A stretch of DNA of 64,000 bases, taken from positions 448,001 through 512,000 of the forward strand of contig CAVRZA010000011.1 of assembly GCA_963725665.1 (NCBI GenBank). The letters are read 5' to 3'. The position numbers and the translations under genes are program-made. Below the pieces are notes generated by a model that worked only from the letters and a program-made list of their open reading frames with translations, did no database searches and was not told the origin of the DNA. Positions 28,074 to 46,081 of this stretch are shown piece after piece; the first letter of the stretch is position 1, and each line of letters begins with the position of its first letter. This stretch comes from an uncultured Actinomycetes bacterium (GTDB lineage Bacteria; Actinomycetota; Thermoleophilia; UBA2241).

Positions 28074-29596
28074 GCCGCGGCCTCGCCGCGCAGATCCGGT
28101 AGCGCACGGTGTCCAGACTGCCCCTCCTCGAGCCGCTCGGCGCGCAGCACCACGGCGAGGCCAAGCCCGAAGAGGACCCACATGGGCGGGAAGTCGAACA
28201 CGGAGCTTGGTCCCCAGCAGCCGATCACGTAGCCGGCGACGGCGATCGAGGTCGCCGTCCCTAAGAAGCGCAGCTGGGGGTCGGCACTGTCGCGTCCGAT
28301 CCTCCACAGGGCGACGAACAGGCCTACGTAGAAGAGCAGGTAGAAGACAAGGCCGGGCAAGCCGCCGTCGACGAGGACCTCCATCCACCAGTTGTGGAGG
28401 TTCGCGAGCTCCCCGAGTCTATCGGGTTGCTGCTTTACCAGTCCTTCGGCGTTGCCCGGGCCCGCGCCGGCGAGGTCGTACTGCAGGGCCGCGTGCCATC
28501 CCGCCCGTAGAAGCGCGACCCGGGAGCCACCCGAGCCGCTTCCCGACTCCACCTGCTGGGTCACGACACTCAGCTGGAACTGGTCGAGAAGGTGAGACTG
28601 CGAGCTGTTGAAGGCGAGGAAGGCCAGCCCGGCGAGCAAGGCGACGCCGATGACCACGATGGCGCCGCGATGCCTCACCCTGCCGCGCGCGAAGAGCACG
28701 GCCATGACGAGGAGCGTCTCGAAGCCGATCGCCACGAGCGCCACACGCGACCCCGTGTGGAGCAGGGCGTAGGCGCTGAGGGCGAGCCCGAGCAGGGCGA
28801 GCGCCTGGAGCGACGCGCGTCGTGTGAGGAAGAGACCAACGAGGAGAAAGGGCAGACACATGGCGAGGTATGTGGCCAGGTCGTTGGGGTTGAAGAAGAA
28901 ACCCGTCGCGAAGCGGGCGATCCTTTGCCCTCCGTATGCCGAGCTTGGCAGGTGCAGTCCGAGCGTGCCCTCTGCAGTCGCGACGAGCAGGTTCAGCGCC
29001 AAGGCGATGCCGAGCACGACGAGCAGGGTGTGCAGGCGCTCACGGGTCGTGCCCCAGTAGGTCGTCGCGACGAGCACGACGACCATGAGCGCCAGCAGCG
29101 CCAGGTAGCGGAAGCCGGCCGTCTTGTCGGGCGCCCAGAGGAGGCTGAGCAGAAGCCAGCCGAGCCAGGCGGCCAGCCAGGCGATGAGGCTGAGCGGCGC
29201 GACACGCAGCCGCGGCCGCGCGAGCAGGGCCCACGTAAGGGTGCCGAAGATGAGAACGGCGACGAGCACGCGAAAGGCGAAGACCTGGCGCGCCTGGGGC
29301 AGGGCGACGGCAGGCCCGAGGAGTGCGGCGAGGACGACGAGCAGGGCGAGGAAGCGCAGAGCCCTGCGCAGCGGCAGACGCAGTAGGCGCCGTCCGGCGA
29401 CGAGGACGAGCGCGACGATGACGAAGAGCCCGAGGCCGAAAACGGTGCGTCGTGGGTGAACGTGCAACGACCAGACGATGAGCACGGTGGCCAGCGTGCC
29501 GGCGAGCAGCGCCAGTACCGTCGGCCACCTTGGGGCCCACCGGCTCCTTCCGCCGCCTGAGGCGGACGGCAGCTTACCAGGCACGGCTGGGCTCAC
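28070..29596 (-). CDS. O-antigen ligase/Wzy polymerase family (TuaE-like)
   Basis: About 12 TM helices with FFNPNDLA, TGSR, GAGPG and HNWWMEVL motifs. Confidence 0.8.
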   Translation of the reverse strand: MSPAVPGKLPSASGGGRSRWAPRWPTVLALLAGTLATVLIVWSLHVHPRRTVFGLGLFVIVALVLVAGRRLLRLPLRRALRFLALLVVLAALLGPAVALPQARQVFAFRVLVAVLIFGTLTWALLARPRLRVAPLSLIAWLAAWLGWLLLSLLWAPDKTAGFRYLALLALMVVVLVATTYWGTTRERLHTLLVVLGIALALNLLVATAEGTLGLHLPSSAYGGQRIARFATGFFFNPNDLATYLAMCLPFLLVGLFLTRRASLQALALLGLALSAYALLHTGSRVALVAIGFETLLVMAVLFARGRVRHRGAIVVIGVALLAGLAFLAFNSSQSHLLDQFQLSVVTQQVESGSGSGGSRVALLRAGWHAALQYDLAGAGPGNAEGLVKQQPDRLGELANLHNWWMEVLVDGGLPGLVFYLLFYVGLFVALWRIGRDSADPQLRFLGTATSIAVAGYVIGCWGPSSVFDFPPMWVLFGLGLAVVLRAERLEEGQSGHRALPDLRGEAAA

Positions 29597-30966
29597 GGGC
29601 CGGTTCCGCCCCGTCGGTCGCGCATCTCATCCAAGAGAGCCGCAAGCTCGCCGGTGAGGCGGCGGCCATCGTAGCGGGCCACTTTGTCGGGGGCGGGCGG
29701 CGCGATCGATCCCGATCGCGCCGCCCGCACGAACTCGGCCAGCCGCTCGGCCAGCGTCTCGTCCGGCATGAGCGACCGGCCTCCGCCGATGTCTGCCAGT
29801 AGCTGAGCGGCGGCGGATTCGGGCGACGTCAGGGCGACGATGGGGCGGTCGGCGGCTATGTACTCGAAGATCTTGGAGGTGAGCGACTCCGGGGCCACTC
29901 CCGGGATGAGGAGGAGCGCGTCGGCCGCGCGCTGGTAGCCACGCGCGACGGCGCGTGGTGCGAGGGGCTTCACCTGCACCCGGTCGGCGATCCCCAGCTC
30001 GGCGGCGCGCGCGTGCAGCAGCTGTCCCTCGACCCCGAGGAAGAGCGCCTTGACGTTGTGGGGCAGGTCAGCGAGCGCCTCTAAGAAGCGCATGACGTGC
30101 GGCACGCGTATCCCGTACAGGCGGCCGGTGTAGACGATCCAGAAGGACTCGCGAGGGAGCTCGATCGGGGCGACCTCCTCCTGGGGGTCGAAGCCGTTGG
30201 GGACGACGTGCACCGGCGGGGCCGCACCGGGGTAGCGCCGCCGCAGGTCCTCGGCGATCGGCTCGTTGATGGCGGTGGCGGTGGCGGCCTGCGCGAGAGC
30301 CAGTCGCTGAAGTGAGGAATGCGCCCAGCGGTGCAGTGGCGTCGGCGGCCGCATCGACTGAGGCACGGGCCACGGGTCACGGTAGTCGGCCAGCCAGGGC
30401 AGCCCGCTCTCGTACGCGAGCCGGGCGGCGATGAGGTGCGTGCTGGCGACGGGGAAGCTCGAGAAGATGGCATCGTAGCGCTCTTCGTGCAGCAGGCGCC
30501 GCCCCAGCATGATGCCGGGCAGGATCCAGCCTATGTACGGGTCGGGGACGAACAGCCAATCGTTGATGACTTCGCGGCGCAGCAGCCGGCGTGGCGGCCT
30601 TCCCGCGTTGGTGTGGGCCTCCGCCTGCGGCGGTCGCGAGGCGGCCTGGCCTTGATCGACCGTGTCGCCTCCTCCTCCGCCGCTACTCGCGGTGCGCCCG
30701 CCACGGCGAGCCTGAGAGGCTGTCGCGAGGAGTCTGCCACCGAACGCGTAGAGTCCGTGCGGTCTCGGTGCCGCCGCGCGCACGATGCGGACTCCCGGCG
30801 GGTCGGGCACCGGTCCGGTCAGGCGTGCTGAGAGCACCACGGGTTCCCAGCCGAACTCGGGAAGGTAGCGGATGAAGCGAAGCTGGCGCGCGTTGCCCCC
30901 GGTGGCGAGGGGCGGGAAGTAATTGGCCACCATCAGCACTCTGCAGGGCGGTCGCCGTTCGCTCAC
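29593..30966 (-). CDS. GT4 glycosyltransferase
   Basis: YFPP, PDPYIGW, ADYRDPW, PNGFD, YTG and KIFEY motifs. Confidence 0.88.
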   Translation of the reverse strand: MSERRPPCRVLMVANYFPPLATGGNARQLRFIRYLPEFGWEPVVLSARLTGPVPDPPGVRIVRAAAPRPHGLYAFGGRLLATASQARRGGRTASSGGGGGDTVDQGQAASRPPQAEAHTNAGRPPRRLLRREVINDWLFVPDPYIGWILPGIMLGRRLLHEERYDAIFSSFPVASTHLIAARLAYESGLPWLADYRDPWPVPQSMRPPTPLHRWAHSSLQRLALAQAATATAINEPIAEDLRRRYPGAAPPVHVVPNGFDPQEEVAPIELPRESFWIVYTGRLYGIRVPHVMRFLEALADLPHNVKALFLGVEGQLLHARAAELGIADRVQVKPLAPRAVARGYQRAADALLLIPGVAPESLTSKIFEYIAADRPIVALTSPESAAAQLLADIGGGRSLMPDETLAERLAEFVRAARSGSIAPPAPDKVARYDGRRLTGELAALLDEMRDRRGGTGP

Positions 30967-31086: not shown

Positions 31087-32898
31087 TCACGTCCCCAGTT
31101 CCTCCCCAGGACGTATGCCCAGCCGCTCGGCCGTCTCCACCTCCTGCTCCTCGGCGTCCCGCAGCTCGTCGAGCGTGAGCTCGGCGAGCTCCTCTTGGTC
31201 GGCACTCGTCGCGACCCCGGTTGGTGTCCGCTCCCGCTGCGCGTCCGGCTGCGCCGCCGCGGGGGTGGGCGCCGCCACCATCGGTCGCTCCGCCGCGGCA
31301 GCTGGTGTCGTCTCCGCGGCGGCCTTCTCGGCCTGAGGCAGCGGCCTGCGCTGCCGCGCTTCGCGCGCCAGACGCAAGGGGTGGAGAAGCTGCAGCGCGA
31401 TGCGCTTCAGCGCCGGCAGCTCGCCGGGCGTGAAGAAACGGAGCGCGAGCAGCGTGGCCGGGAAGAGCGCCAGCGCCGGCAGCTTGTAGAGCTGGTCTAG
31501 CGCGAGGGTGTCGATCGGCGCGTAGACGGATTCGCCGCTGACCTTCGCGATGAGCCAGGCCGCGACGAGGGTCGCGGCCGTCGCCGCCGAGATCTTGACC
31601 AGCCTCCCGAGCTCGTGGGAGATCCTGTAGTAGTGCTGTGACACGGCGCGCATCAGGAACGTCAGCACGGCGAACCCGATGAGCGTCGACCAGGCGGCGG
31701 CGATGTAGCCGTAGCGAGGGATGAAGACGATGTTCAGGCCGACGTTGAGAAGGGCGGCGGCGGTGACGGCCACTGGGATCAGGCGGTTCTTCTTCATCAC
31801 GTTGGCGCCCACCGCCATGATGTAGTACGCACCGAAGAAGAGTGTCGAGAAGGCCAGCACGAGGGTGGCCGGCCCCACCGACCAGTAGTCGGGTTTGCGC
31901 AGCAGCAGGCGCACCCACACCGGCATGAAGACGCCCAAGACGACGATGATGCTCACCGAGAGCAGACAGAAGTAGGTGAAGCCGCGGGCTACCAGCCGTT
32001 TGTGCCTGGGTGGGTCGTGCAACCAGGAGTAGTGCCACTGCGGCCAGGCCAAGCGGAACGAGTTCATGGCGAAGTACACCGGCTGGGCCAGCATGAAGGC
32101 GCTGCTGTAGAGACCCACCTGGACGATGTCGGTGAAGACACGCACGAAGTAGCGGTCCGAGTAGTTGAGCACATAGAACGCGACTGAGCCGAAGAGGCTC
32201 GCCGACGCGAAGGCGAGCATCTCCTTGAACAGCCGCCCATCCCAGAAGAGGTGGATGCGGCGCCAGTAGGTCGGTATGGCGACCACGTTGAGCGTGAACG
32301 ACGTGACGCAGACCGCGATGAGCACGCCGAGCACGCCCAGGTGGACCACCGTCACGAGCGCGACGGTGAGAGGGATCTGGATGAAGACGCGCACCAGCGT
32401 GAACCCCAGGAAGCGCCAGGGCCGATGGTCGAGACGGAAGAGCGTGAACGGCAGGTCGCTCCAGTTCACGAAGAACTCGTTGAGCAGCATCAGCTCGAAG
32501 TACACCGTGTAGCCGGGGCCGCCCATGATGACGCCCGAGAGCCAGGGCATGACGAGAGCCAGCGAGCCGAGGAAGAGGAACGGCCAGATGGTACTGACGT
32601 AGAACGTCAAGGTGATGATCCGGCTCCGGTGCTTCTCGGCGTGGTCGTCGAAGTAGAAGCGCGCGAAGGTCACGTCCCAGCCCAGCGTGACGAAGACGTC
32701 GATGAGCAGGCCGGTGGCCAGCACCATGGCGAGGATGCCGTAGTCGCGCGGCGTGAGGTACTGCGTGTAGATAGGCAGCAGGAAGAGCGCGAGGAACTTC
32801 TGGAGGATGCGCCCGCCGCCGTAGATGATGGAGTCGCCGAACAGGCTGGCGACGCCGAACTGCTTGCCGGAGGCGCGGCGCGCGGCGGTGTCCGTCAC
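31087..32898 (-). CDS. Wzx-type flippase
   Basis: LLPIYTQYLTPRDYG, DRYF and VGLYS motifs, about 14 TM helices and an acidic C-terminal tail. AGGAG RBS before GTG 32898. Confidence 0.85.
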   Translation of the reverse strand: MTDTAARRASGKQFGVASLFGDSIIYGGGRILQKFLALFLLPIYTQYLTPRDYGILAMVLATGLLIDVFVTLGWDVTFARFYFDDHAEKHRSRIITLTFYVSTIWPFLFLGSLALVMPWLSGVIMGGPGYTVYFELMLLNEFFVNWSDLPFTLFRLDHRPWRFLGFTLVRVFIQIPLTVALVTVVHLGVLGVLIAVCVTSFTLNVVAIPTYWRRIHLFWDGRLFKEMLAFASASLFGSVAFYVLNYSDRYFVRVFTDIVQVGLYSSAFMLAQPVYFAMNSFRLAWPQWHYSWLHDPPRHKRLVARGFTYFCLLSVSIIVVLGVFMPVWVRLLLRKPDYWSVGPATLVLAFSTLFFGAYYIMAVGANVMKKNRLIPVAVTAAALLNVGLNIVFIPRYGYIAAAWSTLIGFAVLTFLMRAVSQHYYRISHELGRLVKISAATAATLVAAWLIAKVSGESVYAPIDTLALDQLYKLPALALFPATLLALRFFTPGELPALKRIALQLLHPLRLAREARQRRPLPQAEKAAAETTPAAAAERPMVAAPTPAAAQPDAQRERTPTGVATSADQEELAELTLDELRDAEEQEVETAERLGIRPGEELGT

Positions 32899-33076
32899 GT
32901 GCTCCTGCTGCCGTGGGACTCGACGGTACTCACAAGCCCTGGATTGTAGCATCGGGGCCCAAGCGGGCCGGTCGGCCGTCTTGTAGTGTCAGCCCCACTG
33001 CGGCCTGGTCGGCCGTCGCGACACGTACGGTGCGGATCTTGCGGCGGCGACGTCCGCCCCGGCCTGTCTGGCGACC

Positions 33077-34225
33077 TCAGCCCGGACGGCGGTACGACTG
33101 CGGCAGCTCTTTGGGGAAGAGGTCGCCGTGGGCGATCTCGGCGGCGAGCTCTTCGGCCGCCAGTGGAGATGAGCCGCGGCGGCGTGCCCGCGCCATGACC
33201 TCACCTACACGCAGACCGGCCGTGTGCTGCTCGATCACGGGCGCGGGGACCAGCTCTCCGATGGTGCGCGCGGTGTGGCCGCCTCCCGGGTCTGACTCGG
33301 GGAAGACTCGCAACCCAGCATCCTCGAGGCCGCGTCGGTCGACCCTTCCGTTGTACACGACGACGGCGAGATGCGGGGCGAGCGCCGCCAGCTCGGCGGC
33401 CGAGATGACGGCGCTCGCCCCGACGAGCTCCGTCTCCGGCTGGGCCGTGAAGGTCAGCAGCGCGTCGAGCTCCGGCAGAAGGCGCCGCACCTCCGTGTCG
33501 CCCAGGCCGTCACCGACCTTCTCGGCGCCGCAGAGCGACACCCGGCCGGGTCCGTCGGGGCCGGCGACGAGCACGCGAGCGCCCATCTGGGCCAACACGC
33601 GCGCGACCTTGGGATAGACGATGCCGTCGGCGGCGAAGAGCAGGGTCGATCCGATGATCTCGACGCCCAAGCTGAGCAGGAACCAGGCGACGCGCAGCGC
33701 CGTGTAGCGGAAGAGGTCGATGCCGTCCTCGTCGACGCCGGCGATGGCGATACCGGTGCGCCGGCAGCCGACCGCGTCGACCTCCGTGGGCCGCCAGTCG
33801 GCCACGGCGAACATCAGGCTGACGACGGCCGTCTCGGGCAGCGAGCGGATCACGCTCTCGTCGATCGGCCGCACGCCGGCCAGGTTGGTGACGACGTCGA
33901 CCGTGGCCAGCGGCGCCTGAAGCTTGCTGCCGACGAAGCTCACCCGGTCCTGCACGCCGGCGAGGCGCGCCAGGTAGGCCGTCTGCTCTTGCGCCTCCTC
34001 GCGCGTGCCGAAATCGCTATCGCGCGCGACGGCGACCACGGCGGCGCCTGCCAGCGCCGCCACCGTCGCCGTCGCGCGGTAGTAGCCGGTGGCCGCCTCG
34101 GTGAGTACCGTCATGCCCTGCAGGTCGAGCTCATGGCGGGCGATGGCGCGCTCGGCCAGACGCACGACGTAAAGGCCGGGAAAGCGCCCGTCGCAGGCGA
34201 AGCGGCTGTCGCTGACGATGACCAT
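33077..34225 (-). CDS. Uncharacterised Rossmann-like protein associated with the polysaccharide locus
   Basis: VLTEAATGYY, ALAGA-VVAVARDSDFG, DVVTN-GVRPID and HTAGLRVGE segments. Good codon bias; function not recognised. Confidence 0.65.
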   Translation of the reverse strand: MVIVSDSRFACDGRFPGLYVVRLAERAIARHELDLQGMTVLTEAATGYYRATATVAALAGAAVVAVARDSDFGTREEAQEQTAYLARLAGVQDRVSFVGSKLQAPLATVDVVTNLAGVRPIDESVIRSLPETAVVSLMFAVADWRPTEVDAVGCRRTGIAIAGVDEDGIDLFRYTALRVAWFLLSLGVEIIGSTLLFAADGIVYPKVARVLAQMGARVLVAGPDGPGRVSLCGAEKVGDGLGDTEVRRLLPELDALLTFTAQPETELVGASAVISAAELAALAPHLAVVVYNGRVDRRGLEDAGLRVFPESDPGGGHTARTIGELVPAPVIEQHTAGLRVGEVMARARRRGSSPLAAEELAAEIAHGDLFPKELPQSYRRPG

Positions 34226-34530
34226 GGTCGCCGGACCGGCGGCGAGAGACGTCGCCCGTCAGAGCGCAGTATACCTGCATTCCACGGGCCCCCAGCTGCG
34301 GCGCCTACCGCTCAGAGCCGTTGGCGGACGGCGCTCGCCGCAGCCAAGCGGCGCGACTTGGAGCCGTGGCCCACCCGCATCGGAGCCGCCGCCCACCCGC
34401 CTCCCACTATGTTCTTCGTTCCCTATTCGTGCGGTATCATGGCTCTTCGCGACGAAGCAGGCTAATCCGCCGGGGCCCGTCCGTGAACGGGCGAGCGAGT
34501 GGCGCACCCGGCGTGGAGGGAGCGATCTCT

Positions 34531-35301
34531 GTGACCATCCGCCTCCTAGGATTGAACTTCAGCCCACGTTCGGGGAGCAACAGCGGTCTGCTGTTGCGGC
34601 GTTCATTGGAACGCCTCGGTGAAGCGTACCCGGGTGAGGTCGAGCACGAGGTCATCGATCTGCGCGACCTGCAGATCCTGCCGTGCAAGGCGTGCGACGT
34701 GTGCGGCAAGACGAAGGACGGGCGCTACATCGACTGCGTGCGTGTGCACGAGGACGACGCGCAGGGCGTCCTCGACGCCATGGTGGCGGCCGACGGCCTC
34801 CTCATCGGTACCCCCGTCTACTTCGGTCTGCCCTCGGACCTGTTCTCGAGGTTCATCATGCGCACGCGTCCGCTGCGGCATCAGGACTTTAGGCTCGCCA
34901 ATCGCCCGGTCGGAGTCATGGCCATCGCCGGACGCCGCTCGGGCGGCGCCGAGACGACCATCATGTCGGCTTGGCTGCCGTTCATCCGCAACGGCTGTCT
35001 CATCGTCGGCAACGGCGACGCCACGTGCCAGTTCGGCGCCATGGGCTGGGCCGGCAAGAGAGGCGACATCCTGACCGACGAGTGGGGCATGGAGCAGGGC
35101 TTCCAGGTGGCCGAGAGGGTGTTCACCGTGGCCAAGCTGATCCGGGCCGGCACGGACACGCTGGACTACGTTAACCTCATGCGCTTCTCCTACGAATCGG
35201 GCATGCGGCAGGTCCCGCCGGCAGCTGCGCCGGCGCCGCCCGCGGCCGAGGGTCGACGAGCCGACGTGCAGACATCCGACCTGATGGAGGACGCGCCATG
35301 A
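34531..35301 (+). CDS. Flavodoxin-fold iron-sulfur flavoprotein / NADPH-dependent FMN reductase family
   Basis: FSPRSGSNS, CKACDVC...C, DDAQ, GTPVYF, RSGGAE and D.WG motifs. Confidence 0.85.
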   Translation: MTIRLLGLNFSPRSGSNSGLLLRRSLERLGEAYPGEVEHEVIDLRDLQILPCKACDVCGKTKDGRYIDCVRVHEDDAQGVLDAMVAADGLLIGTPVYFGLPSDLFSRFIMRTRPLRHQDFRLANRPVGVMAIAGRRSGGAETTIMSAWLPFIRNGCLIVGNGDATCQFGAMGWAGKRGDILTDEWGMEQGFQVAERVFTVAKLIRAGTDTLDYVNLMRFSYESGMRQVPPAAAPAPPAAEGRRADVQTSDLMEDAP

Positions 35302-35549
35302 GCGATGCCGACGTGATCCTGGAGTTCATCCGTGACGAGCTGCTCGAAGACGACGTCGACATCGACGATGACACGTCCCTCTTTCGTGACCAGCTCCTCG
35401 ACTCGATGAACCTGACGTCGCTGATCGTCTTTCTCGAGCAGACCTTCGCTATCAAGATCAAGGCCATGGACATCGTGTACGAGAACCTCGACACGGTCGG
35501 GCACATGCTGGCCTTCATCGACCGTAAGCGGGCTGCGCAGCCCGCCTGA
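35298..35549 (+). CDS. Acyl carrier protein
   Basis: Acidic 83 aa with an LLDSM phosphopantetheine site and ENLDTV. ATGA overlap with the flavoprotein gene. Confidence 0.9.
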   Translation: MSDADVILEFIRDELLEDDVDIDDDTSLFRDQLLDSMNLTSLIVFLEQTFAIKIKAMDIVYENLDTVGHMLAFIDRKRAAQPA

Positions 35550-35589
35550 CGAAGGCCGGCGCGTGGGCGGGCGACGAAGAAGGTAGAAG

Positions 35590-35826
35590 ATGACCGAGAC
35601 GCTTGATCGGACGACCGCCGCGGCGCCCTCTGTTGCTATGCCCGCCGACGGGCAGGCGGCGCGCGCCGTCGACGACGTCGTCGAGCACGCGCGCCGCCTG
35701 CCGTCGGGCTGGTATGTGCTCGGGCTTGCCGTCCAGGTGTTCCTCTGGTTCCTGGTGTTCCTCGGTATCGCCGTGGCGATCGGCGTCGGCGGCCACCTGA
35801 CGGAGTTCCGCTACGTTGGTTTCTGA
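35590..35826 (+). CDS. DltX-like small single-pass membrane protein
   Basis: One TM helix and C-terminal FRYVGF, resembling the F-x-Y-x-x-F tail of DltX. Located within an ACP/MBOAT operon. Confidence 0.65.
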   Translation: MTETLDRTTAAAPSVAMPADGQAARAVDDVVEHARRLPSGWYVLGLAVQVFLWFLVFLGIAVAIGVGGHLTEFRYVGF

Positions 35827-35833
35827 GACGGGG

Positions 35834-37345
35834 GTGGAGACGACCGGAGCCCTCCGGCGCCTCCTGGTCGTGGCGCGTGAGGAACCCGGGCGCACGCTGC
35901 TCGTCAGTGACGAGTCGCGCTACACCTTCTCCTCCTTTGTTGGCCAGGCGGCCGCCGTCGTGACGCGCCTGCGCTGCAACGGCTTCGCCCGCGGCGACCG
36001 TGTGGCCCTGTACTTCGACGACTACGACGCCTTCTTCATCTCGATGGTCGGGGTATGGCTCGCCGGCGGGGTCGTCGTGCCTCTCAACACCACGCTCCCG
36101 TCTGACAGTGTCGAGGAGCTGGTCGCCAAGGCCAGTCCGGCCTTCCTGCTCACGACTCCGGCGGCGGACCCCCTGCCTTCGCTTGCTGCCGCTCGTCCGC
36201 GGCGGCTCGTCGTCGATCCGGCCATAGTGGCGCGGGACGGGTTGCCGACCGTCGCGGCGGCGTCGTTCACTCCCGTCGCTCCGTCGGAGCTCGCCGTCAT
36301 CATGTTCACGTCGGGCTCGACGGGAGTCCCGAAGGGCGTCATGCAGACCCTCGAGGGCGTGCTGGGCAACGCCGAGAGGGTCGCGCGTGAGCTCGAGCTC
36401 ACGGCGGACGATCGCATCTTCATCAACACGCCGCCGTATTTCACCAGCGGAATCTGCCACTTCCTCACTCTGTTGAGCGCCGGCGGCTCGCTCGTCGGAC
36501 GGCAGGGGTTCCGCTTCGGCGGCGGTCTGCTCACCGAGATGGAAGAGGCGGGCTGCACCGGGTTCGGGGGCGCTCCGGCGCACCTGGTGCGCGTCGTGGA
36601 TCCCCTGGAGGAGCCGGTCGAACCCGAGCTGCTGCGCTTCTGGGTGAGCTCGGGCGACCATCTGCCGGTGGCCACCATCGACAGGATGCGTGAGATGCTG
36701 CCCGGCGTTGCGCTGTACAACATGTACGGGCTGACCGAGGTGTCGGGGCGGCTGTGCATCCTGCCTCCGGCCGAGGTCGACCGCAGGCGCGACTCCGTGG
36801 GCCGGCCGATCGAGGGCATGCGCGCGAGCGCGCGGCGCGACGACGGCTCGCCGGCCTCGCCGGGCGAGGCCGGCGAGCTCTACGTCGAGGGCGACCTTCT
36901 GATGCAGGGCTACCTCGACGAGCCGCTGCTCACCGAAGAGGCTCTCACCGGTTGCGGCTTCCGCACCGGCGACGTCGGCCACGTCGATGACGACGGCTAC
37001 GTTTGGGTCACCGGGCGCAAGGACGACATCTTCAAGCGCGGCGGCGAGAAGGTCTCGGCCGTACACATCCAGCAGGCGATCGCGGCGACCGGCACCGTCG
37101 TCGACGCCGTCGTGCTGGCCCTCGACGACGAGCTTCTCGGCAAGGTGCCCGTCGCCTTCGTGGTGCCGGTCGCCCCGGAGTCGTTCACCGTGCGCGGGCT
37201 GATGAAGGAGCTCAAGAGACGGGTCCAACCGGCCTGGCTTCCGGCCCGCGTGGTCGTGCTCGCTGAGATCCCGCGGACGGGATCGGGTAAGGCCGTGCGC
37301 GCCAGGCTCCTGGAGCACGCAGAAGCGGCGGGGCCGCAGCGGTGA
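35834..37345 (+). CDS. Class I adenylate-forming enzyme (acyl-AMP/ACP ligase)
   Basis: FTSGSTGVPKGV, YGLTE, FRTGD, GRKDD and PRTGSGK motifs. Start uncertain (35816-35834). Confidence 0.9.
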   Translation: METTGALRRLLVVAREEPGRTLLVSDESRYTFSSFVGQAAAVVTRLRCNGFARGDRVALYFDDYDAFFISMVGVWLAGGVVVPLNTTLPSDSVEELVAKASPAFLLTTPAADPLPSLAAARPRRLVVDPAIVARDGLPTVAAASFTPVAPSELAVIMFTSGSTGVPKGVMQTLEGVLGNAERVARELELTADDRIFINTPPYFTSGICHFLTLLSAGGSLVGRQGFRFGGGLLTEMEEAGCTGFGGAPAHLVRVVDPLEEPVEPELLRFWVSSGDHLPVATIDRMREMLPGVALYNMYGLTEVSGRLCILPPAEVDRRRDSVGRPIEGMRASARRDDGSPASPGEAGELYVEGDLLMQGYLDEPLLTEEALTGCGFRTGDVGHVDDDGYVWVTGRKDDIFKRGGEKVSAVHIQQAIAATGTVVDAVVLALDDELLGKVPVAFVVPVAPESFTVRGLMKELKRRVQPAWLPARVVVLAEIPRTGSGKAVRARLLEHAEAAGPQR

Positions 37346-38625
37346 GGATCTACTTCACGCTCTACATCATCCCCGTGGTCGCCGTTGCGCTGCTGCTCTA
37401 CTGGGGCCCGTTGCGGGGCGAGAGGAGACGTCTGGCGCTCATCATCGTCACCTCGTTCGCCGTACTGGCGCTGCTGCACCCCGTCTTCGTGGTCGTCGTG
37501 CTCGGCCTGGCCTTCTTCACGCACCGCCTCGTGGAGTGGCGCAAGAACGGACGGCTGTCCGTGGGCCAGGTGCTCGTCATGGCGATCTCGCTGGCCGTCG
37601 TGGTGCTCGGCGTAGGCAAGTACGGACACGCGGGGGCACAGGCGCTCTGGGGCCAGAACGACTGGGTGGCACAGCACCTGCTGATGCCCCTGGGGATCAG
37701 CTACTTCGTCTTTCGTCTCCTGCAGTACGTCTTCGACCAGGTCCGCGGGGTCATCACCGAGAACTCCTTCTTCAAGCTGCTGGCCTTCCTGCTCTGGCTT
37801 CCGACCTTCCCCGCCGGTCCGCTCGAGACCTACCAGGGGTTCTACGGCAAGCGCAGCCTCTCGCCCGACCGAGAGCTGGTCTACGCGAGCATCAGGCGCA
37901 TCGTCTTGGGGTACTTCAAGAAGGCCTTCGTGATCGATCTCCTCTTCCCGATCATGTTCGGGAACCTCACGACGACCGTGCTGGCGCGCAACTACGCGCC
38001 GTCGTCCGAGCCGCCCCTGACGTCACTGGCCTTCGTGATCGTGATGTTCCTGCGCGCGTACCTCGACCTCTCTGCCTACACCGACCTCGCCATCGGTTTC
38101 TCGGGACTCTTCGGCTTCCGCATCATGGAGAACTTCCATCGGCCGCTGGTGCAGAAGAACCTCTCGGAGTTCTGGCAGAGCTACCACATCAGCCTGTCGA
38201 CCTGGTGCCGCAACAACGTGTACTTTCCCGTCTTCGGCCTCACCCGCAAGGCGTGGGTCGGGCTCTACGCCTCGATGCTGACCATGGGTCTCTGGCACTA
38301 CGTGAACCTGAACTGGACGTTCTGGGCGCTCTGGCACGCCTCGGGGCTCGTCGTGGTGTCGCGCTGGAAGCAGTACCAGAGGAGCCGGCGCAAGGCGAAG
38401 AAGCGGGCGCTGGCGGTCCCCGAGACGGCGCCGGTGAGCGTCGGCTCCTACCTGTTTGCACTCCCGGCGAGCAAGAAGATGGTGTTCTGGTGGCCCTACG
38501 TGGTCACCTTCCTCTACGTCTCGGTCGGGTACTCGTTCGCGGCGACCCATACGTTTGGCAAGGCCGTCACCGTCTTTGCGTGGTGCTTCTACGGACCGGC
38601 GCTGTGGCTCTTCCACCTCATCTAG
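37342..38625 (+). CDS. MBOAT acyltransferase (AlgI/DltB-like)
   Basis: PLGISYFVF, AGP, GYFKK, YLDLSAYTDLAIG, ENF..P, EFWQSYHISLSTW and MGLWH motifs. Confidence 0.9.
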   Translation: MRIYFTLYIIPVVAVALLLYWGPLRGERRRLALIIVTSFAVLALLHPVFVVVVLGLAFFTHRLVEWRKNGRLSVGQVLVMAISLAVVVLGVGKYGHAGAQALWGQNDWVAQHLLMPLGISYFVFRLLQYVFDQVRGVITENSFFKLLAFLLWLPTFPAGPLETYQGFYGKRSLSPDRELVYASIRRIVLGYFKKAFVIDLLFPIMFGNLTTTVLARNYAPSSEPPLTSLAFVIVMFLRAYLDLSAYTDLAIGFSGLFGFRIMENFHRPLVQKNLSEFWQSYHISLSTWCRNNVYFPVFGLTRKAWVGLYASMLTMGLWHYVNLNWTFWALWHASGLVVVSRWKQYQRSRRKAKKRALAVPETAPVSVGSYLFALPASKKMVFWWPYVVTFLYVSVGYSFAATHTFGKAVTVFAWCFYGPALWLFHLI

Positions 38626-38659
38626 GGCCTTGTCGGCGCACCGGCGCAGGGGTCAGCCC

Positions 38660-39754
38660 GTGAGCCGTCCCCGCCGAGCCGCCTTCAGGCGCGGACTGGT
38701 CTCCCTGCACCCACTGGTGCTGGTCGCGGCGCTGGCCATGCTCGTCCCTGCTCTCGGCGGGCTGCAATACGTCGTGACGGGCGGTCTCTACACCTCTCTG
38801 CCACTCGGTGTGCTCCTGCGCATGCCGCGCGATGACTACGTGAAGGCGTCCTACGATGCCACCATGCTCAAGCTGCACCCGCCCCGGGTCCCCGCGATCT
38901 ACGTCTTCGGCGGCTCCGCCGCACGAGAGGCGTTCACAAGCGATCGGGACCTCGAGGGGGAGATCGCCGCCGCCGGTGGTGGCCAGACGAACTTCAACGT
39001 GCTCGCGTCGAGCAACCAGACCTTCGCTGAGAGCCTCGCCGTGATCGACAATCTGCCGCCGTCGAGACGGGCGATCTGCGTCATCACCCTGAACCAGGTG
39101 CGCTTCGCCTACGATCCCGGCGTGGTCGAGGAGCAGCTGGCGGGCAAGCCCCTGCTGCTCGACAGTCCGAGTCTGCGCCGCTACGTGTTCGCGCGCTACC
39201 ACCGTGGGTTGACGACGCCTACGATCCTGCCGGGGATCCTGGACTTCATCAGCGGCTGGTTCGAGAAGCATCACGGCCAGTTGCTGCGCGGTCACCTGCC
39301 ACGGCTGCAGTACGTCCTTCACCGCTACCATCAGGGACACCAGGTGTCCGATCAGAGAAAGCGCGCCATGGTCGCCAAGTGGCTGCGGGACAAGGGTGGA
39401 CCCGGAGGGACCTTCGATCGGGACTTCCGCTACAACCTCGATCTGCTCGACGAGGCGGTCAAGGCGGCGCAGGCGAAGGGATTCACGGTGGTGTTGCTGG
39501 AGGTGCCGCTGAACCGGGACATCGTGGGCCACGCGTTCGACCGGGTGCAGGGGGTCTACCGTCCGGCCGTCGAGCAGCTCGCTCGTCGGCGCGGCGCCGG
39601 GTACTTGCGGGCGTTCTCAGAGAAGGGTCTGGTGAACCAGGACTTCCGCGACCTGTCCCACCTCGTCGAGTCCGGTCGCGCCAAGTACGATGCGGCCTTC
39701 GTGCGCGCCGTCGTGCCGTTGCTGCAACGCTTGCAGACGCAGCCCGCCGGCTGA
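38660..39754 (+). CDS. DltD/SGNH-like extracytoplasmic acyltransferase
   Basis: N-terminal TM anchor, FGGS nucleophile motif and C-terminal FRDLSHL (DxxH). Confidence 0.7.
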   Translation: MSRPRRAAFRRGLVSLHPLVLVAALAMLVPALGGLQYVVTGGLYTSLPLGVLLRMPRDDYVKASYDATMLKLHPPRVPAIYVFGGSAAREAFTSDRDLEGEIAAAGGGQTNFNVLASSNQTFAESLAVIDNLPPSRRAICVITLNQVRFAYDPGVVEEQLAGKPLLLDSPSLRRYVFARYHRGLTTPTILPGILDFISGWFEKHHGQLLRGHLPRLQYVLHRYHQGHQVSDQRKRAMVAKWLRDKGGPGGTFDRDFRYNLDLLDEAVKAAQAKGFTVVLLEVPLNRDIVGHAFDRVQGVYRPAVEQLARRRGAGYLRAFSEKGLVNQDFRDLSHLVESGRAKYDAAFVRAVVPLLQRLQTQPAG

Positions 39755-39880
39755 CGCGGCGGCTCGCCTCGCGCGCAGTCGCGCAGGGGGCGCCTGCGAG
39801 CCCCCGGGCCGCCGCGGGCCACTCACTCAGCGAGCCGGGCGGTGCTTCCTCCACAGACCGAGGAGGGCGTCGCAGATGCC

Positions 39881-40624
39881 TCAGCCGGTCCCGGGGGTGT
39901 ACGCCGGCGGAGCCAGGAAGGCATCGATGCGGCGCGCCAGCGAGCGTTCGTCGACCTCCAGCGCCTCGCCGTTGGGCACCCTCATCTCATGGAGGGCCTC
40001 GATGCCTCGTCCCTCGAGGAAAGCGCGCACGAGGCGTATCGATCCGCCGTGGGTGACGAGGAGGGCGACGCGGCGCGTCAGCGCCGCGTCGCGCAGCGCC
40101 TCGAGCACGCGGCGCTGTTGCGCGGCGAAGCTCTCACCGCCGGGGAAGGTGAAGGTCTCGGGGTGCTCCTTGTAGGCCCGCCAGCCCTCGGCGTCCTCGC
40201 GCATGATGTCGGCGAAGGCGCGCGACTCCCACGCCCCGCGGTCCGTCTCCGCCAGACGCTCATCGATGCGTAGCTCGATGCGGGGTGCCGGGGACCGCGC
40301 AGGCTTGCCACCGACCCTGGCGGAGTCGGCTGACGGCTGGGCCGCCTCGTCCTGTCGGTCCGCCGCGCGCTCGAGCTCGTCGCGCATGAGCTCGGCCGTC
40401 TCGCGGGCGCGTGAGAGGTGGCTCGTCACGATCAGCTCGATGCCGCGTCCGGCGAGCCGCCGGCCGAGCTCGTGCGCCTGCTCTCGCCCGCGCTCGTTGA
40501 GCGGCACGTCGGTCCAGCCCTGGCAGCGCACCGGCTCCAGGTTCCAGTCGGTCTCACCGTGACGCACAAGGTACACGACCGGCCTATCGGTCCGTGGTGT
40601 CTGTGCTCGAGTCTCCGCGCTCAC
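39881..40624 (-). CDS. Histidine phosphatase family protein
   Basis: RHGETDWN, SHLSRARETA, E.DRGAWE, PGGES and VTHGG motifs. Confidence 0.9.
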   Translation of the reverse strand: MSAETRAQTPRTDRPVVYLVRHGETDWNLEPVRCQGWTDVPLNERGREQAHELGRRLAGRGIELIVTSHLSRARETAELMRDELERAADRQDEAAQPSADSARVGGKPARSPAPRIELRIDERLAETDRGAWESRAFADIMREDAEGWRAYKEHPETFTFPGGESFAAQQRRVLEALRDAALTRRVALLVTHGGSIRLVRAFLEGRGIEALHEMRVPNGEALEVDERSLARRIDAFLAPPAYTPGTG

Positions 40625-41601: not shown

Positions 41602-42354
41602 TCAGTGGAAGTCGAGGACGGTGTCGCCGCGGAGGCCGAGGCGCAGCGTCTCGACCGAGATGACCTCTTCGGGCGGGATGTTCCCCAGGTTCACGTTGCT
41701 GCCGAACTTCTTTATGAACCACGTCTGCTGCGGCCTGTTCGGCGCCTCGAAGAGAAGCTGCTCGGGTGGGATCTGGTGCACGATCTCGTCGACCAGGCCG
41801 CTCTTGACCTCACCGTCCGGGGTGTAGACCCCGACGGTGCCCGACTCGCGCCCCTCGGTGATGACCTTCCAGGCGCCGGCGTCGAGCTCGCGCTTGATCA
41901 AGTCGACCCATCTGTAGGGTGCGAGCACGACCTTGGCGTCCTTGCTGCCCACCTCGGAGAGGACCTTGAAGTCGCGCGCGAGCCGGCGGATCATGCCGAG
42001 CTTCTGCTCCTCTTCCATGGCGATGGTGCCGTCCGAGATCTCCACGTGCCCGACGCCGAGCTCGCTCACTGCGCGCACGTAGTCGTCGACGCGGTTCTGC
42101 CGTAGCGCGACCTCGAAGAGGGTGCCGCCGAAGCACACGGGGATGTCGTGCCTTTGATAGAGGAGGATCTTGTCGCGCAGGTTGTGGGTGATGTAGGAGG
42201 TCCCCCAGCCCAGCTTGACGATATCGACGTATGGCGCCGCGACGGCGACCAGGTCCTCGATCTGCGACGGGCCGAGGCCCTTGTCGAGGATGTGGGTGAG
42301 GCCACTCTCGCGCGGCTTTGCCGTGCGGTCCGGCAGCAAGAGAAAATCGAGCAT
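41602..42354 (-). CDS. comA: Phosphosulfolactate synthase
   Basis: KPRESGLTHILDKGL, KLGWGTS, GGTLFE, EISDG, SEVGSK, EGRESG, FEAP, NLGNI and ETLRLGLRGDT motifs. Confidence 0.93.
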   Translation of the reverse strand: MLDFLLLPDRTAKPRESGLTHILDKGLGPSQIEDLVAVAAPYVDIVKLGWGTSYITHNLRDKILLYQRHDIPVCFGGTLFEVALRQNRVDDYVRAVSELGVGHVEISDGTIAMEEEQKLGMIRRLARDFKVLSEVGSKDAKVVLAPYRWVDLIKRELDAGAWKVITEGRESGTVGVYTPDGEVKSGLVDEIVHQIPPEQLLFEAPNRPQQTWFIKKFGSNVNLGNIPPEEVISVETLRLGLRGDTVLDFH

Positions 42355-43091: not shown

Positions 43092-44186
43092 ATGTGCGCG
43101 CGCATCGACAGCACACCGAGCGCCGACGGCTATCGCATGCCGGGCGAGTTCGAACCGCATGTGGGCACCTGGATGCTCTGGCCGCAACGCCCCGACAACT
43201 GGCGCCTCGGCGGCAAGCCCGCACAGCGCGCTTTCGTCGTCGTGGCCAGGGCGATCTCACAGTTCGATCGAGTGACCATGGGCGTCAACCACGAGCAGTT
43301 CGAGAACGCGCGCAACCTCCTGCCGCCGCAGGTGCGCGTGGTCGAGATCTCCAACAACGACGCCTGGATGCGCGACATCGGGCCCAGCTTCGTCGTCGAC
43401 GACAGGGGCGGCGTGCGCGCCGTCGACTGGGTCTTCAACGCCTGGGGCGGTCTCTACGACGGCCTCTACTTCCCCTGGGACAAGGACGACCTGGTGCCGC
43501 GCAAGGTCTGCGAGATCGAAAGGATCGACCGCTACCGCGCCCCCTTCGTGCTCGAGGGCGGATCGATCCACGTCGACGGGGAAGGCACCGTCATCACGAC
43601 CGAGGAGTGCTTGCTCTCGCCGGGGCGCAACCCGAGCATGAGCAAGGACGAGATCGAGACGGGTCTGCGCGACTACCTCAGCGTCGAGAAGGTCGTGTGG
43701 CTCGGCCGGGGCTTCGACCCCGAGGAGACGACGGGGCACGTCGACGACGTCGCCTGCTACGTGCGCCCCGGTGTCGTCGCCATCGCCTGGACGGATGACC
43801 CCGAGGACTGGCGCTACGAGATCATGCGCGACAATCTCGAGCGCCTCGAGCTGGCGACCGACGCCCGCGGGCGGCGCCTGGAGATCGCGAAGCTGCCCTG
43901 CCCGACCGACGTCGTCATCACCGAGGACGAGGCGGCGGGGGTCGACGCAGTGGAAGGGACCATTCCGCGCCGGCCGGGCGACCGCATGCCGGCCACCTAC
44001 ATCAACTTCTACATCTGCAACGGCGGCGTCGTGATGCCGGTGTTCGACGATCCTCAGGATGAGACCGCGCAGGCGGCTTTGCAGCGGCTCTTCCCGGAGC
44101 GCACGGTCGTCACGGTGCCCGGGCGCGAGATCGTGCTCGCTGGCGGCAACGTGCACTGCATCACGCAGCAGCAGCCGCGCGCGTAG
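43092..44186 (+). CDS. aguA: Agmatine deiminase (canonical)
   Basis: [40 protein letters not shown] and [10 protein letters not shown] motifs. Confidence 0.92.
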
Positions 44187-44226: not shown

Positions 44227-45027
44227 ATGAGTGAGCCCTCACGGGGTCTTCCCGTCGCCTCGCCGTGGTTCTCGGCCCGGCGTCTGCCCGGAGGCGTCAC
44301 GCCGCTGACCGAGCCCCACGTCCACGAGCTCCTGCGCGCCAACATCTGGCTCGTCGAGGGGCGCGAGCGCGATCTGGTCGTCGACGCCGGCAACGGCGTC
44401 GGCGACCTCCCGGCCGCGCTCGCGCCCCTCCGCTCGCACCCCGACAAGCCTCTGGTCGCGGTGCTCACGCACGCGCATCCCGATCATCAAGGAGACTTCT
44501 GGCGGTTCGAGGAGCGCCTGGCCCATCCTCTCGAGGCCAGCGAGCTCCAGCACCCCTCGATCGTGCGCACGCTGCTCGGCGCGGGCTATCCCCGGGAGGT
44601 GCACGACACCATGGCCGACGAGGGCCTCGCCCTGCCGGAGACCCTTGTCGACGCCGTGCCGTGGGCGGGGTTCGATCCCGCTTCGTTCACCCTCAAGACC
44701 TGCTCACCGACGAGTCTCATCGAGGAAGGCGACATCGTCGACCTGGGCGACAGGCGCTTGCGCGTCCTTCACCTGCCGGGCCACTCACCGGGTGGCGTCG
44801 GCCTCTTCGAGGAGGCGAGCGGTGTGCTGTTCTCGGGAGATGTCCTCTACGATGGGACGCTTCTCGACGATCTGCCCGGGGCGAACGTGCCGGACTACGT
44901 GCGCACGATGCGGCGGCTGCGCGAGCTTGCGGTCGTGACCGTGCATGCCGGCCACGAGGACAGCATCGGCCGGGTGCGGCTGATCGAGATCGCCGACGAC
45001 TACGTCACGAGGCGGGCGGCCGACTGA
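44227..45027 (+). CDS. MBL-fold metallo-hydrolase
   Basis: THAHPDH, PGHSPG, LFSGD and HAGH motifs. Confidence 0.88.
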   Translation: MSEPSRGLPVASPWFSARRLPGGVTPLTEPHVHELLRANIWLVEGRERDLVVDAGNGVGDLPAALAPLRSHPDKPLVAVLTHAHPDHQGDFWRFEERLAHPLEASELQHPSIVRTLLGAGYPREVHDTMADEGLALPETLVDAVPWAGFDPASFTLKTCSPTSLIEEGDIVDLGDRRLRVLHLPGHSPGGVGLFEEASGVLFSGDVLYDGTLLDDLPGANVPDYVRTMRRLRELAVVTVHAGHEDSIGRVRLIEIADDYVTRRAAD

Positions 45028-46081
45028 CTCGACCCACCGCCGGCACCTGCTGGGTGATGCAGTGGATGCCGCCGCCGCCGTAGCCGAGGACGGGGGTCGG
45101 CACACCGACGACCTCGCGATCGGGCGCGTTGCGGCGGAGCTCCTCGAGCGCTTCCAGGTCGGCTCCCGTCCCTCCCGTCGGGACGACCAGCGCCCCGTTG
45201 GCCTGGTAGAAGTTCATGTAGTCGGCGCCGATGCTCCTGCCCGCGACCGCGACCGCTCGCCCGGGCCGATCGAACTCGACGACCGCGAGCGGTCGGCCCC
45301 GCGCGTCGGTCGTCTCCAGCCGACGTCTGTTCTCCTGAAAGTTGTCGTAGTCGGGGTGCTCTCGGTCGTGGACCATCTGCAGTACGACGCGCGCGGGGCC
45401 GACGAAGGCGGCCACGCCGTCGACGTGGCCGTCCGTGTCGGGGTCGTACTCGGGTCCGTATCCCGACTTGAGCCAGACGACCTTCTCCACGCCGAGGAAG
45501 TCCTTGAGGCCCTGCTCGATCTGGTCCTTCGAGAGCTGTGGGTTGCGATTCGGGTTGAGCAGGCAGCTTTCGGTGGTGATGAGAGTCCCCTCCCCGTCGA
45601 CGGTGATCGCGCCGCCCTCGAGCACGAGCGGCGCGGCGTACCGCCGCACCCCGAGATGCTCGCAGAGACGGGAGCCGATCTCGGCGTCCTTCCCGTAGGG
45701 GAGGTACCTCTCGCCCCAGGAGTTGAAGAGGAAGTCGGCCGCGGCGAGCGCGCCCTCGGGGCCGAGGAGGAAGATGGGGCCGCTGTCGCGGGCCCAGGAG
45801 TCGTCGATGGGCAGCTCGACGACCTCGATGTTGTCGGAACCGCAGTAGGCGCGCGCGTCGCCGCCTTCGCCGCTGTCGGCGATCACCAGCACCGGCTCGA
45901 AGGCGGCGATGGCGCGCGCCACAGCGGCGTACGTCGCCTGAGCGAGCATGTAGTAGTCACCCCAGTACGCCCGCGAGCGCGTCGGCCAGCAGATCAGGCA
46001 ACGCTCGTGTGGCTCGAACTCCGCGGGCATCCGGAACCCGTCGCGAGCGGGTGAGCCCATCGTGGCCGCCTTCTCGCGCAT
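45005..46081 (-). CDS. Agmatine deiminase-family protein 2
   Basis: RMPAEF, DSWARD, LEGG, GHVD and GGIHCITQQ motifs. GGGGGAG RBS. Confidence 0.9.
   Translation of the reverse strand: MREKAATMGSPARDGFRMPAEFEPHERCLICWPTRSRAYWGDYYMLAQATYAAVARAIAAFEPVLVIADSGEGGDARAYCGSDNIEVVELPIDDSWARDSGPIFLLGPEGALAAADFLFNSWGERYLPYGKDAEIGSRLCEHLGVRRYAAPLVLEGGAITVDGEGTLITTESCLLNPNRNPQLSKDQIEQGLKDFLGVEKVVWLKSGYGPEYDPDTDGHVDGVAAFVGPARVVLQMVHDREHPDYDNFQENRRRLETTDARGRPLAVVEFDRPGRAVAVAGRSIGADYMNFYQANGALVVPTGGTGADLEALEELRRNAPDREVVGVPTPVLGYGGGGIHCITQQVPAVGRVSRPPAS

Follow-up and report, generated by a model that had tools for sequence, protein, structure and literature searches.

The Dlt system of Bacillota (DltXABCD) is the closest described counterpart of the six-gene operon reported here. 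It comprises five roles: a ligase, a carrier protein, a membrane-bound O-acyltransferase (MBOAT) without a C-terminal tail, a separate microprotein ending in FxYxxF, and an anchored SGNH transferase. In excerpts of a published account of acyl transfer (PMC12148441), FXYXXF is described as the acyl-shuttle motif that defines DltX, and its tyrosine as the acyl carrier. According to the same excerpts, MBOAT pathways other than Dlt have the motif fused to the MBOAT, with neither a microprotein nor a carrier protein. Two such systems, PatA/PatB and AlgI/AlgJ/AlgX, have in common an MBOAT, an extracytoplasmic SGNH partner and an acyl-Tyr shuttle motif, as described there; they use acyl-CoA, lack a carrier and a ligase, and carry the motif in fused form. 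The operon in question lies in a 64,000-nt stretch of DNA (the window; contig CAVRZA010000011.1, positions 448,001 to 512,000) from an uncultured actinobacterium of the Thermoleophilia, and occupies positions 34531-39754 of the plus strand; all coordinates are positions within the window unless a locus is named. Unlike PatA/PatB and AlgI/AlgJ/AlgX, the operon encodes a separate microprotein, and a carrier protein would be the acyl donor.

The operon contains the same five roles as DltXABCD, and the modelled contact among its MBOAT, microprotein and SGNH protein is like that of the Dlt proteins. It differs from DltXABCD in having a ligase other than DltA, without the Asp that binds the amino group, in that BLASTP links neither the acyl carrier protein (ACP) to DltC nor the SGNH protein to DltD, and in the gene order F-C-X-A-B-D, a flavoprotein with four conserved cysteines being added at the front. 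It also differs in having one to five SGNH paralogues per locus, with more elsewhere in the genome, and in residing in an actinobacterium in which a TagF-type polymerase was not detected. A preliminary description of this DNA had held that the locus mirrors DltC/X/A/B/D. The microprotein with its FxYxxF end, the MBOAT without a fused motif, and the SGNH fold with invariant Ser, Asp and His, whose top Foldseek matches are DltD entries, bear this out. It is likely that the operon encodes a Dlt-type, carrier-protein-fed transmembrane acyl relay that exports an acid other than an alpha-amino acid, with the flavoprotein as an accessory. By analogy, the operon probably works as Dlt does, with a different ligase and an added flavoprotein, and attaches another acid to the cell surface.

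In the proposed pathway, the adenylating enzyme of the ANL superfamily would adenylate a carboxylic acid in the cytoplasm and attach it by a thioester bond to the phosphopantetheine of the carrier. The DltB-like MBOAT would then move the acyl group across the membrane to Tyr75 of the microprotein, within FRYVGF, and the microprotein would pass it to Ser86 of the anchored SGNH protein at the outer face. The SGNH protein would finally esterify an envelope polymer. The flavoprotein would stand outside this relay as an accessory, possibly reducing the acid or the acyl-carrier.

The operon has both a carrier protein and a DltX-like microprotein outside Bacillota, contrary to a statement in the excerpts of PMC12148441. 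Since the ligase is, in addition, not of the D-alanine type, the Dlt relay looks like a general chassis for other acids. A literature search returned papers on Dlt and PatAB and none describing this type of operon. For a putative envelope modification in a lineage that is abundant in soil and sediment yet uncultured, the operon supplies a delimited set of genes open to experiment, among them those for a ligase, a carrier, a 78-aa microprotein with one predicted critical Tyr and an SGNH protein with one predicted critical Ser.

Membrane components of the proposed relay

The microprotein open reading frame (ORF) is found at the same place in 12 of 12 loci from relatives, with a variable N-terminus and one hydrophobic helix. 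Its C-terminus reads LTEFRYVGF, the last six residues being FRYVGF in 11 of these loci and FRYVRF in the remaining one. Across 14 sequences, one of them from a Bdellovibrionales metagenome-assembled genome (MAG) and ending in FRYEGF, residues F73, R74, Y75 and F78 do not vary. The operon therefore encodes a separate single-pass microprotein ending in FxYxxF, the feature by which DltX is recognized. At least 558 metagenomic members of the family were found at E ≤ 0.001 among 8000 candidates scored, all of them unnamed and none with a Pfam domain; domain libraries miss the family.

The sole NCBIfam match of the MBOAT is DltB (TIGR04091), at 132.5 bits against a cut-off of 375. Over 274 aa the protein shares 29.6% of its residues with L. 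oris DltB (E 1e-26), and H282, H319 and H332 are invariant in 13 sequences. A fused FxYxxF end is absent from all 44 operon MBOATs inspected. The host genome encodes a second, AlgI-like MBOAT of 465 aa (L124:6296-7693, minus strand, contig C8) that ends in PSPFLYFQF, a fused FxYxxF motif as in PatA/AlgI-type enzymes. It is adjoined by a 404-aa protein (L124:7704-8918, minus strand) with no Pfam match, which may be its SGNH partner. The MBOAT of a Leptolinea plasmid (H1) has no dlt-like neighbours.

The last protein of the operon has G85, S86, D331 and H334 invariant in 94 distinct sequences. Its AlphaFold (AF2) model has a predicted local distance difference test score (pLDDT) of 95.2 and a predicted TM-score (pTM) of 0.92. 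Foldseek places DltD entries at ranks 1-7 (E 1.4e-5 to 5.5e-4). By VIA-align, the model matches TesA-type SGNH esterases at Z 16.3 with 167 residues aligned, and DltD (6o93) at Z 14.3 in the longest alignment, of 269 residues at a root-mean-square deviation of 4.8. A profile search of the PDB gave two chance-level matches only. The fold match places the protein in the SGNH class. In sequence nothing ties it to DltD, and kinship to DltD is suggested only by its architecture. The combination of conserved MBOAT histidines, an outer SGNH partner and a Tyr shuttle motif, which marks MBOAT-SGNH relays in general, is thus found in the operon; the outer location of the SGNH protein is predicted from N-terminal anchor helices and positive-inside residues only.

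The structural modelling that the preliminary description had put forward as a check yielded a complex in which the MBOAT and the SGNH anchor flank the microprotein. The model comprised the MBOAT, the SGNH protein and residues 36-78 of the microprotein, and scored 0.86 versus 0.52 for the best of three controls; the score mark applied is reached by 58 of 80 solved complexes and by 2 of 110 mismatched pairs. The runs had at least 69% of contacts in common, with a partner pLDDT of at least 70. The helix of the microprotein contacts, in the model, both MBOAT residues 185-200 and residues 5-32 of the SGNH protein, which form its anchor helix. Dlt complexes have reportedly been studied structurally already, whether solved or modelled, so the result may reflect likeness only. 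The modelled complex is best read as showing likeness to Dlt, not binding.

Several of the results speak against a Dlt-type relay or weaken the case for it. The TM-scores of the SGNH model to DltD are low (0.33-0.42), and small SGNH esterases outrank DltD by Z. Pfam DltD (PF04914) has no match in the whole genome, and neither the SGNH protein nor the carrier protein has BLASTP similarity to L. oris DltD or DltC, respectively, at E ≤ 10. The carrier protein, which does have a PP-binding domain and a conserved DS site, gives weak NCBIfam matches, namely 39 bits to OlsHI-ACP and 31.5 and 19.8 bits to the DltC models, whose cut-offs are 68 and 52. A control complex with the MBOAT swapped out still scored 0.52, and the job was unlike those used for calibration in having three chains and author-built alignments. 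Finally, the host MAG has an estimated contamination of 5%.

Three stand-alone SGNH paralogues are encoded elsewhere in the host genome (L121:8593-9795, minus strand, contig C1; L122:8208-9278, minus strand, contig C6; L123:7619-8617, plus strand, contig C1). One of them adjoins glmM and glmS, and another is near MMPL transporter and mechanosensitive-channel genes. The presence of several SGNH paralogues would fit several acceptors or positions.

Conservation of the gene set and the possible part of the flavoprotein

The host genome is a MAG that is 97.5% complete, and the relatives are likewise all MAGs, from soils, peat, sediments and anaerobic reactors. Of 24 genomes from the host's family, 20 encode an MBOAT orthologue with 55-60% identity. 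The 16 genomes from six sister families yielded only AlgI-like MBOAT matches of about 30% identity, and the operon was found in none of them. When 400 more genomes, sampled evenly across the phylum, were searched, the MBOAT had a match at E ≤ 1e-40 only in the one genome that belongs to this family. When 12 family genomes were fetched and searched by tblastn, the ACP, microprotein, ligase and MBOAT were found in all 12, and the flavoprotein and the last gene in 11 each, with up to five copies of the last gene per locus. The ACP is 56-75% identical in all 12 relatives.

A wider scan of the collection gave 80 loci, of which 77 are of the Thermoleophilia type; in 59 of these 77 the sequence ahead of the MBOAT extends for at least 5.5 kb. 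All 59 contain the ACP and the ligase, 58 the microprotein (visible as an ORF in the 59th), 57 the flavoprotein and 56 the SGNH gene. The 59 loci include the 12 genomes and come from close kin, so that the counts express retention within a lineage, not independent events. Recurrence of the gene set is far beyond chance, as the ordered set is found in all 12 fetched relatives and in nearly all of the 59 further loci. Both the flavoprotein and the small ORF, on whose conservation the preliminary description was staked, are kept in homologous operons (12 genomes; 59 loci). Two contigs titled Armatimonadota (L086 and L098, from one MAG) carry a typical Thermoleophilia-type operon with 55-57% identity; the cause is probably misbinning and not gene transfer.

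The flavoprotein is a genuine, lineage-specific member of the operon. It is present in 19 of 24 family genomes, being absent from exactly the four that lack an MBOAT orthologue and from one more, and was found in none of the 16 genomes of the sister families. It is predicted to be cytoplasmic and Isf-like. Residues C52, C55, C58 and C69 form a CxxCxxCx10C loop, and each occurs in 98% or more of the 29 distinct orthologues compared. The preliminary description had called the protein an Fe-S flavoprotein; what was observed is four conserved Cys, in a pattern that fits the compact motif by which Isf-type iron-sulfur flavoproteins bind a 4Fe-4S cluster. The loop is modelled with low confidence (pLDDT 62-69; 77.6 for the whole model). 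The nearest solved sequence is that of the flavone ene-reductase FLR (7d38), a weak similarity of E 9.9e-8 over about 110 residues, and the nearest folds by model comparison are the quinone reductases PnpB and WrbA. Isf, WrbA/PnpB and FLR have the FMN_red flavodoxin-like fold in common with the operon protein, and its compact Cys motif after strand 2 aligns with that of FLR. In the excerpts of the FLR paper (PMC7862272) none of these proteins is recorded beside a carrier protein, and the Fe-S terms searched for do not occur there.

Relatives outside the lineage provide a view of the relay without the flavoprotein. Orthologous ligases with the same A4 motif occur in Bdellovibrionota (L104, L101; 42% identity) and in a Christensenellaceae MAG (L096; 47% identity), and no flavoprotein accompanies them. 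The set in L104:3666-9819 and L101 consists of a microprotein ending in FRYEGF, an ACP, a D-like protein, two inserted genes, the ligase and a short MBOAT of 323 aa; in L104, where the set is split in this way, one inserted gene is of the Glyoxalase family. In L096:9001-16201 the MBOAT itself ends in FIYHLFG, that is, a fused shuttle motif plus one residue, and genes for a TctA/TctB/TctC transporter and a LysR regulator lie between the ACP and the ligase. The TctABC neighbours hint at an imported carboxylate as the substrate.

The flavoprotein could be a passenger beside a real relay, namely a general redox or oxidative-stress protein of the Isf or WrbA type with no part in acyl chemistry. Isf proteins of anaerobes detoxify O2 and H2O2. 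The fold and nearest families of the flavoprotein are those of generic quinone and FMN reductases, and a search of the atlas with its sequence returned generic FMN_red clusters only. One family genome that is 95% complete (G012) has the operon and no flavoprotein orthologue anywhere at E ≤ 1e-30, and the relatives in the two other phyla also run the operon without it, their ligases retaining NTPPY[FY]TSG. These findings are set against the close association of the flavoprotein with the operon. No protein of the set except the ACP is as well conserved (62-76% identity among relatives), and the flavoprotein stays in the cluster where gene order changes. Across 40 genomes it is present or absent together with the MBOAT orthologue in all but one case, its stop codon overlaps the ACP start, and the next-best paralogue in the host genome is only 33% identical. 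A passenger role therefore seems unlikely. Linkage to the operon combined with dispensability leads us to read the flavoprotein as an accessory, lineage-specific step.

The preliminary description had also seen redox tailoring of the acyl group as a possible feature of the operon. G012 and the relatives in two other phyla, which lack the flavoprotein and possess the same ligase motif, argue against it as a core feature and leave redox tailoring unproven. Possibly, the flavoprotein performs a two-electron reduction, of the ene or quinone type, on the acid or the acyl-carrier, though no other element of the explanation is as weak. In a fuller scheme, a glycopolymer of the wall or membrane would be decorated with a non-amino acyl ester, and the Cys4 flavoprotein would have reduced the acyl group in the cytoplasm, before export, as the free acid or on the carrier. 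Alpha,beta-unsaturated, quinone-type and dicarboxylic acids are examples of what the precursor could be. We regard this scheme as doubtful. If it were true, the operon would be the first relay of the Dlt type to include redox tailoring on its pathway, and it would found a wider class of ligase-fed, DltX-dependent envelope acylation systems that spans several phyla. In another family genome (G014) two flavoprotein copies lie near the operon (L021:10320-10994 and L021:13196-13873); the operon-proximal copy was recovered as three tblastn pieces and may be frameshifted.

The ligase and the acyl group

The ligase has the ANL core motifs A3 (TSGTTGxPKG), A5 (YGxTE), A8 (GRxDD..GGE) and A10 (PxTxxGK), all conserved, and belongs to the ANL enzymes. 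It is not DltA, judging from its sequence: the DltA equivalog model TIGR01734 gives 118.3 bits against a cut-off of 559.85, and the same model finds no better DltA candidate elsewhere in the genome. The top NCBIfam models are acyl-CoA-ligase families, PRK06187 with 248 bits (cut-off 476) and TIGR03098 with 243 bits, both below cut-off. Identity to the orthologues is 47% for Christensenellaceae and 42% for Bdellovibrionales. Identity to the reference ANL enzymes lies in one range, with 26% for L. oris DltA, 25% for CaiC, 25% for FadD and 29% for the adenylation part of EntF.

In a quick tree the 14 operon ligases form one clade, with a support of 95 in the SH-like approximate likelihood ratio test (SH-aLRT), and DltA groups with EntF (94). 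A tree constrained to include DltA in the operon clade is worse by 11 log-likelihood units, with p 0.041 in the approximately unbiased (AU) test. This value is marginal, and the tree is a quick one with six outside references on saturated, very long branches. The preliminary description would have been refuted by a ligase clustering with DltA; the score of 118 bits versus 560 and the separate clade go the other way.

The A4 motif of the ligase is NTPPYFTSGICHF, and the segment NTPPY[FY]TSG[ILV][CS]HF is found in 14 of 14 aligned operon ligases, reading PPYFTSG in the window and containing neither Asp nor Glu. The preliminary description had noted PPYFTSG without an Asp, an observation that now extends to the absence of any acidic residue from the segment in all 14. 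At the position of the Asp in the FD motif of DltA, EntF and LgrA, the ligase has Thr210 when aligned to LgrA by HMMER or to EntF by MAFFT, and Ser211 when aligned to DltA by MAFFT. The amino-binding Asp of the FDxS (A4) motif is thus missing. The His of the PxxH motif in FadD, MenE and CaiC is Phe in the operon ligase. With neither the FD Asp nor the PxxH His, the pocket matches that of neither amino-acid activators nor ordinary CoA ligases. Most likely, the acid activated is neither D-alanine nor any alpha-amino acid, as far as these motifs can tell. The missing Asp argues against an alpha-amino acid and leaves room for another way of binding an amine.

The module might instead acylate a membrane lipid, a lipoglycan anchor or a protein with a long-chain fatty acid, and not a glycan with a small acid. 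The best NCBIfam model of the ligase is indeed a long-chain-fatty-acid--CoA ligase subfamily, orthologues are named 'long-chain acyl-CoA synthetase', the SGNH matches with the highest Z are lipid esterases of the TesA type, and an MMPL gene lies beside one of the stand-alone D-like paralogues. However, the ligase scores far below the family cut-offs (248 bits against 476), so that such names are generic, the PxxH His of FadD, MenE and CaiC is replaced, and the MBOAT is DltB-like, DltB presumably handling a small acyl group. Long-chain acylation is accordingly quite improbable. Ordinary D-alanylation, or another aminoacylation by a ligase that has diverged past recognition and holds the amine with non-canonical residues, is very unlikely, because the Dlt architecture, the DltB match of the MBOAT, the 205 bits to the amino-acid adenylation model TIGR01733 (cut-off 317), the LgrA adenylation domains as top PDB sequence matches (two domains summed) and the marginal rejection of a DltA clade by the AU test are opposed by the TIGR01734 score, the lack of an acidic A4 residue in every operon ligase, an A8 motif of the acyl-CoA-ligase/aryl type (RGGEKVS) and not of the NRPS/DltA type, the equal distance of the ligase from CaiC, FadD, EntF and DltA, and the absence of a detectable TagF-type teichoic acid polymerase from the genome. 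A relay of the Dlt type carrying a non-alpha-amino acid is the reading that we prefer.

Gene layout, neighbourhood and possible acceptor

The ORF list, Pfam and NCBIfam agree on six close-packed plus-strand ORFs in the order F-C-X-A-B-D (Table 1). The six-gene set, its tight packing and its divergence from a Wzx/Wzy locus, as well as the translational coupling of flavoprotein and ACP, had been read from the DNA in the preliminary description, and all were confirmed. The flavoprotein starts at a GTG (34531) preceded by GGAGGGAG, and its stop codon overlaps the ACP start (ATGA), as the ANL stop overlaps the MBOAT start (GTGA). The microprotein and ANL genes overlap by 11 nt if the latter starts at TTG 35816, or are separated by 7 nt if it starts at GTG 35834. 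The remaining two intergenic gaps are 40 and 34 nt. The SGNH protein most likely starts at GTG 38660, after AGGGG and 34 nt past the MBOAT stop, which gives a protein of 364 aa with an N-terminal hydrophobic anchor. The divergent intergenic region presumably holds the operon promoter. A consensus scan of 34100-40000 detected no sigma-70-like site and no terminator, and Rfam gave no match at E ≤ 1 on 34150-34600, so there is no riboswitch to hint at the substrate.

Table 1. Features of the operon and its surroundings (positions within the window)
Feature	Coordinates	Strand	Evidence or remark
GT1/GT4	26760-28388	-	upstream of operon
ATP-grasp-like protein	25531-26763	-	weak CPSase_L_D2/ATPgrasp_Ter matches; inside Wzx/Wzy locus
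Wzy_C	28070-29596	-	upstream of operon
GT4	29593-30966	-	upstream of operon
Wzx-type Polysacc_synt	31087-32952	-	upstream of operon
Protein of unknown function, 382 aa	33077-34225	-	no Pfam match; weak Rossmann/SDR-like and 2-Hacid_dh-like leads
Divergent intergenic region	34226-34530	.	between minus-strand gene 33077-34225 and flavoprotein start
FMN_red flavoprotein	34531-35301	+	Pfam PF03358, E 1.8e-20
Acyl/peptidyl carrier protein	35298-35549	+	PF00550 PP-binding, E 2.5e-8; LLDSM phosphopantetheine site
DltX-like membrane microprotein, 78 aa	35590-35826	+	one transmembrane helix, C-terminal LTEFRYVGF; no Pfam or NCBIfam match
ANL adenylating enzyme	35816-37345	+	PF00501 AMP-binding, E 2.9e-64, and PF13193 AMP-binding_C
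DltB-like MBOAT without fused FxYxxF tail	37342-38625	+	PF03062, E 5.1e-14
DltD-like SGNH protein	38660-39754 (ORF 38456-39754)	+	GGS...DxxH, N-terminal membrane anchor; no family match
ComA-type and PAD_porph genes (three)	41602-42354, 43092-44186, 45005-45949	-, +, -	downstream of operon

The acceptor is probably a wall or membrane glycopolymer that is not a classical teichoic acid. A TagF-type polymerase (PF04464) was not found in the 97.5%-complete host genome, which encodes two LCP ligases. In many relatives, PMT_2 (GT-C) and LPG_synthase_TM genes recur upstream of the operon. The product of the adjacent Wzx/Wzy locus was considered as the acceptor and is retained as a possibility only, given that this neighbourhood is not conserved in relatives: tblastn with the Wzx, GT4 and 382-aa proteins of the window found nothing in the loci of relatives. 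A search of the atlas with the 382-aa protein returned unnamed clusters only. The ATP-grasp-like protein may, from its weak domain matches, add an amino acid or an acid to the glycan. Downstream of the operon lie genes for a ComA-type phosphosulfolactate synthase and for two PAD_porph (agmatine-deiminase-like) proteins.

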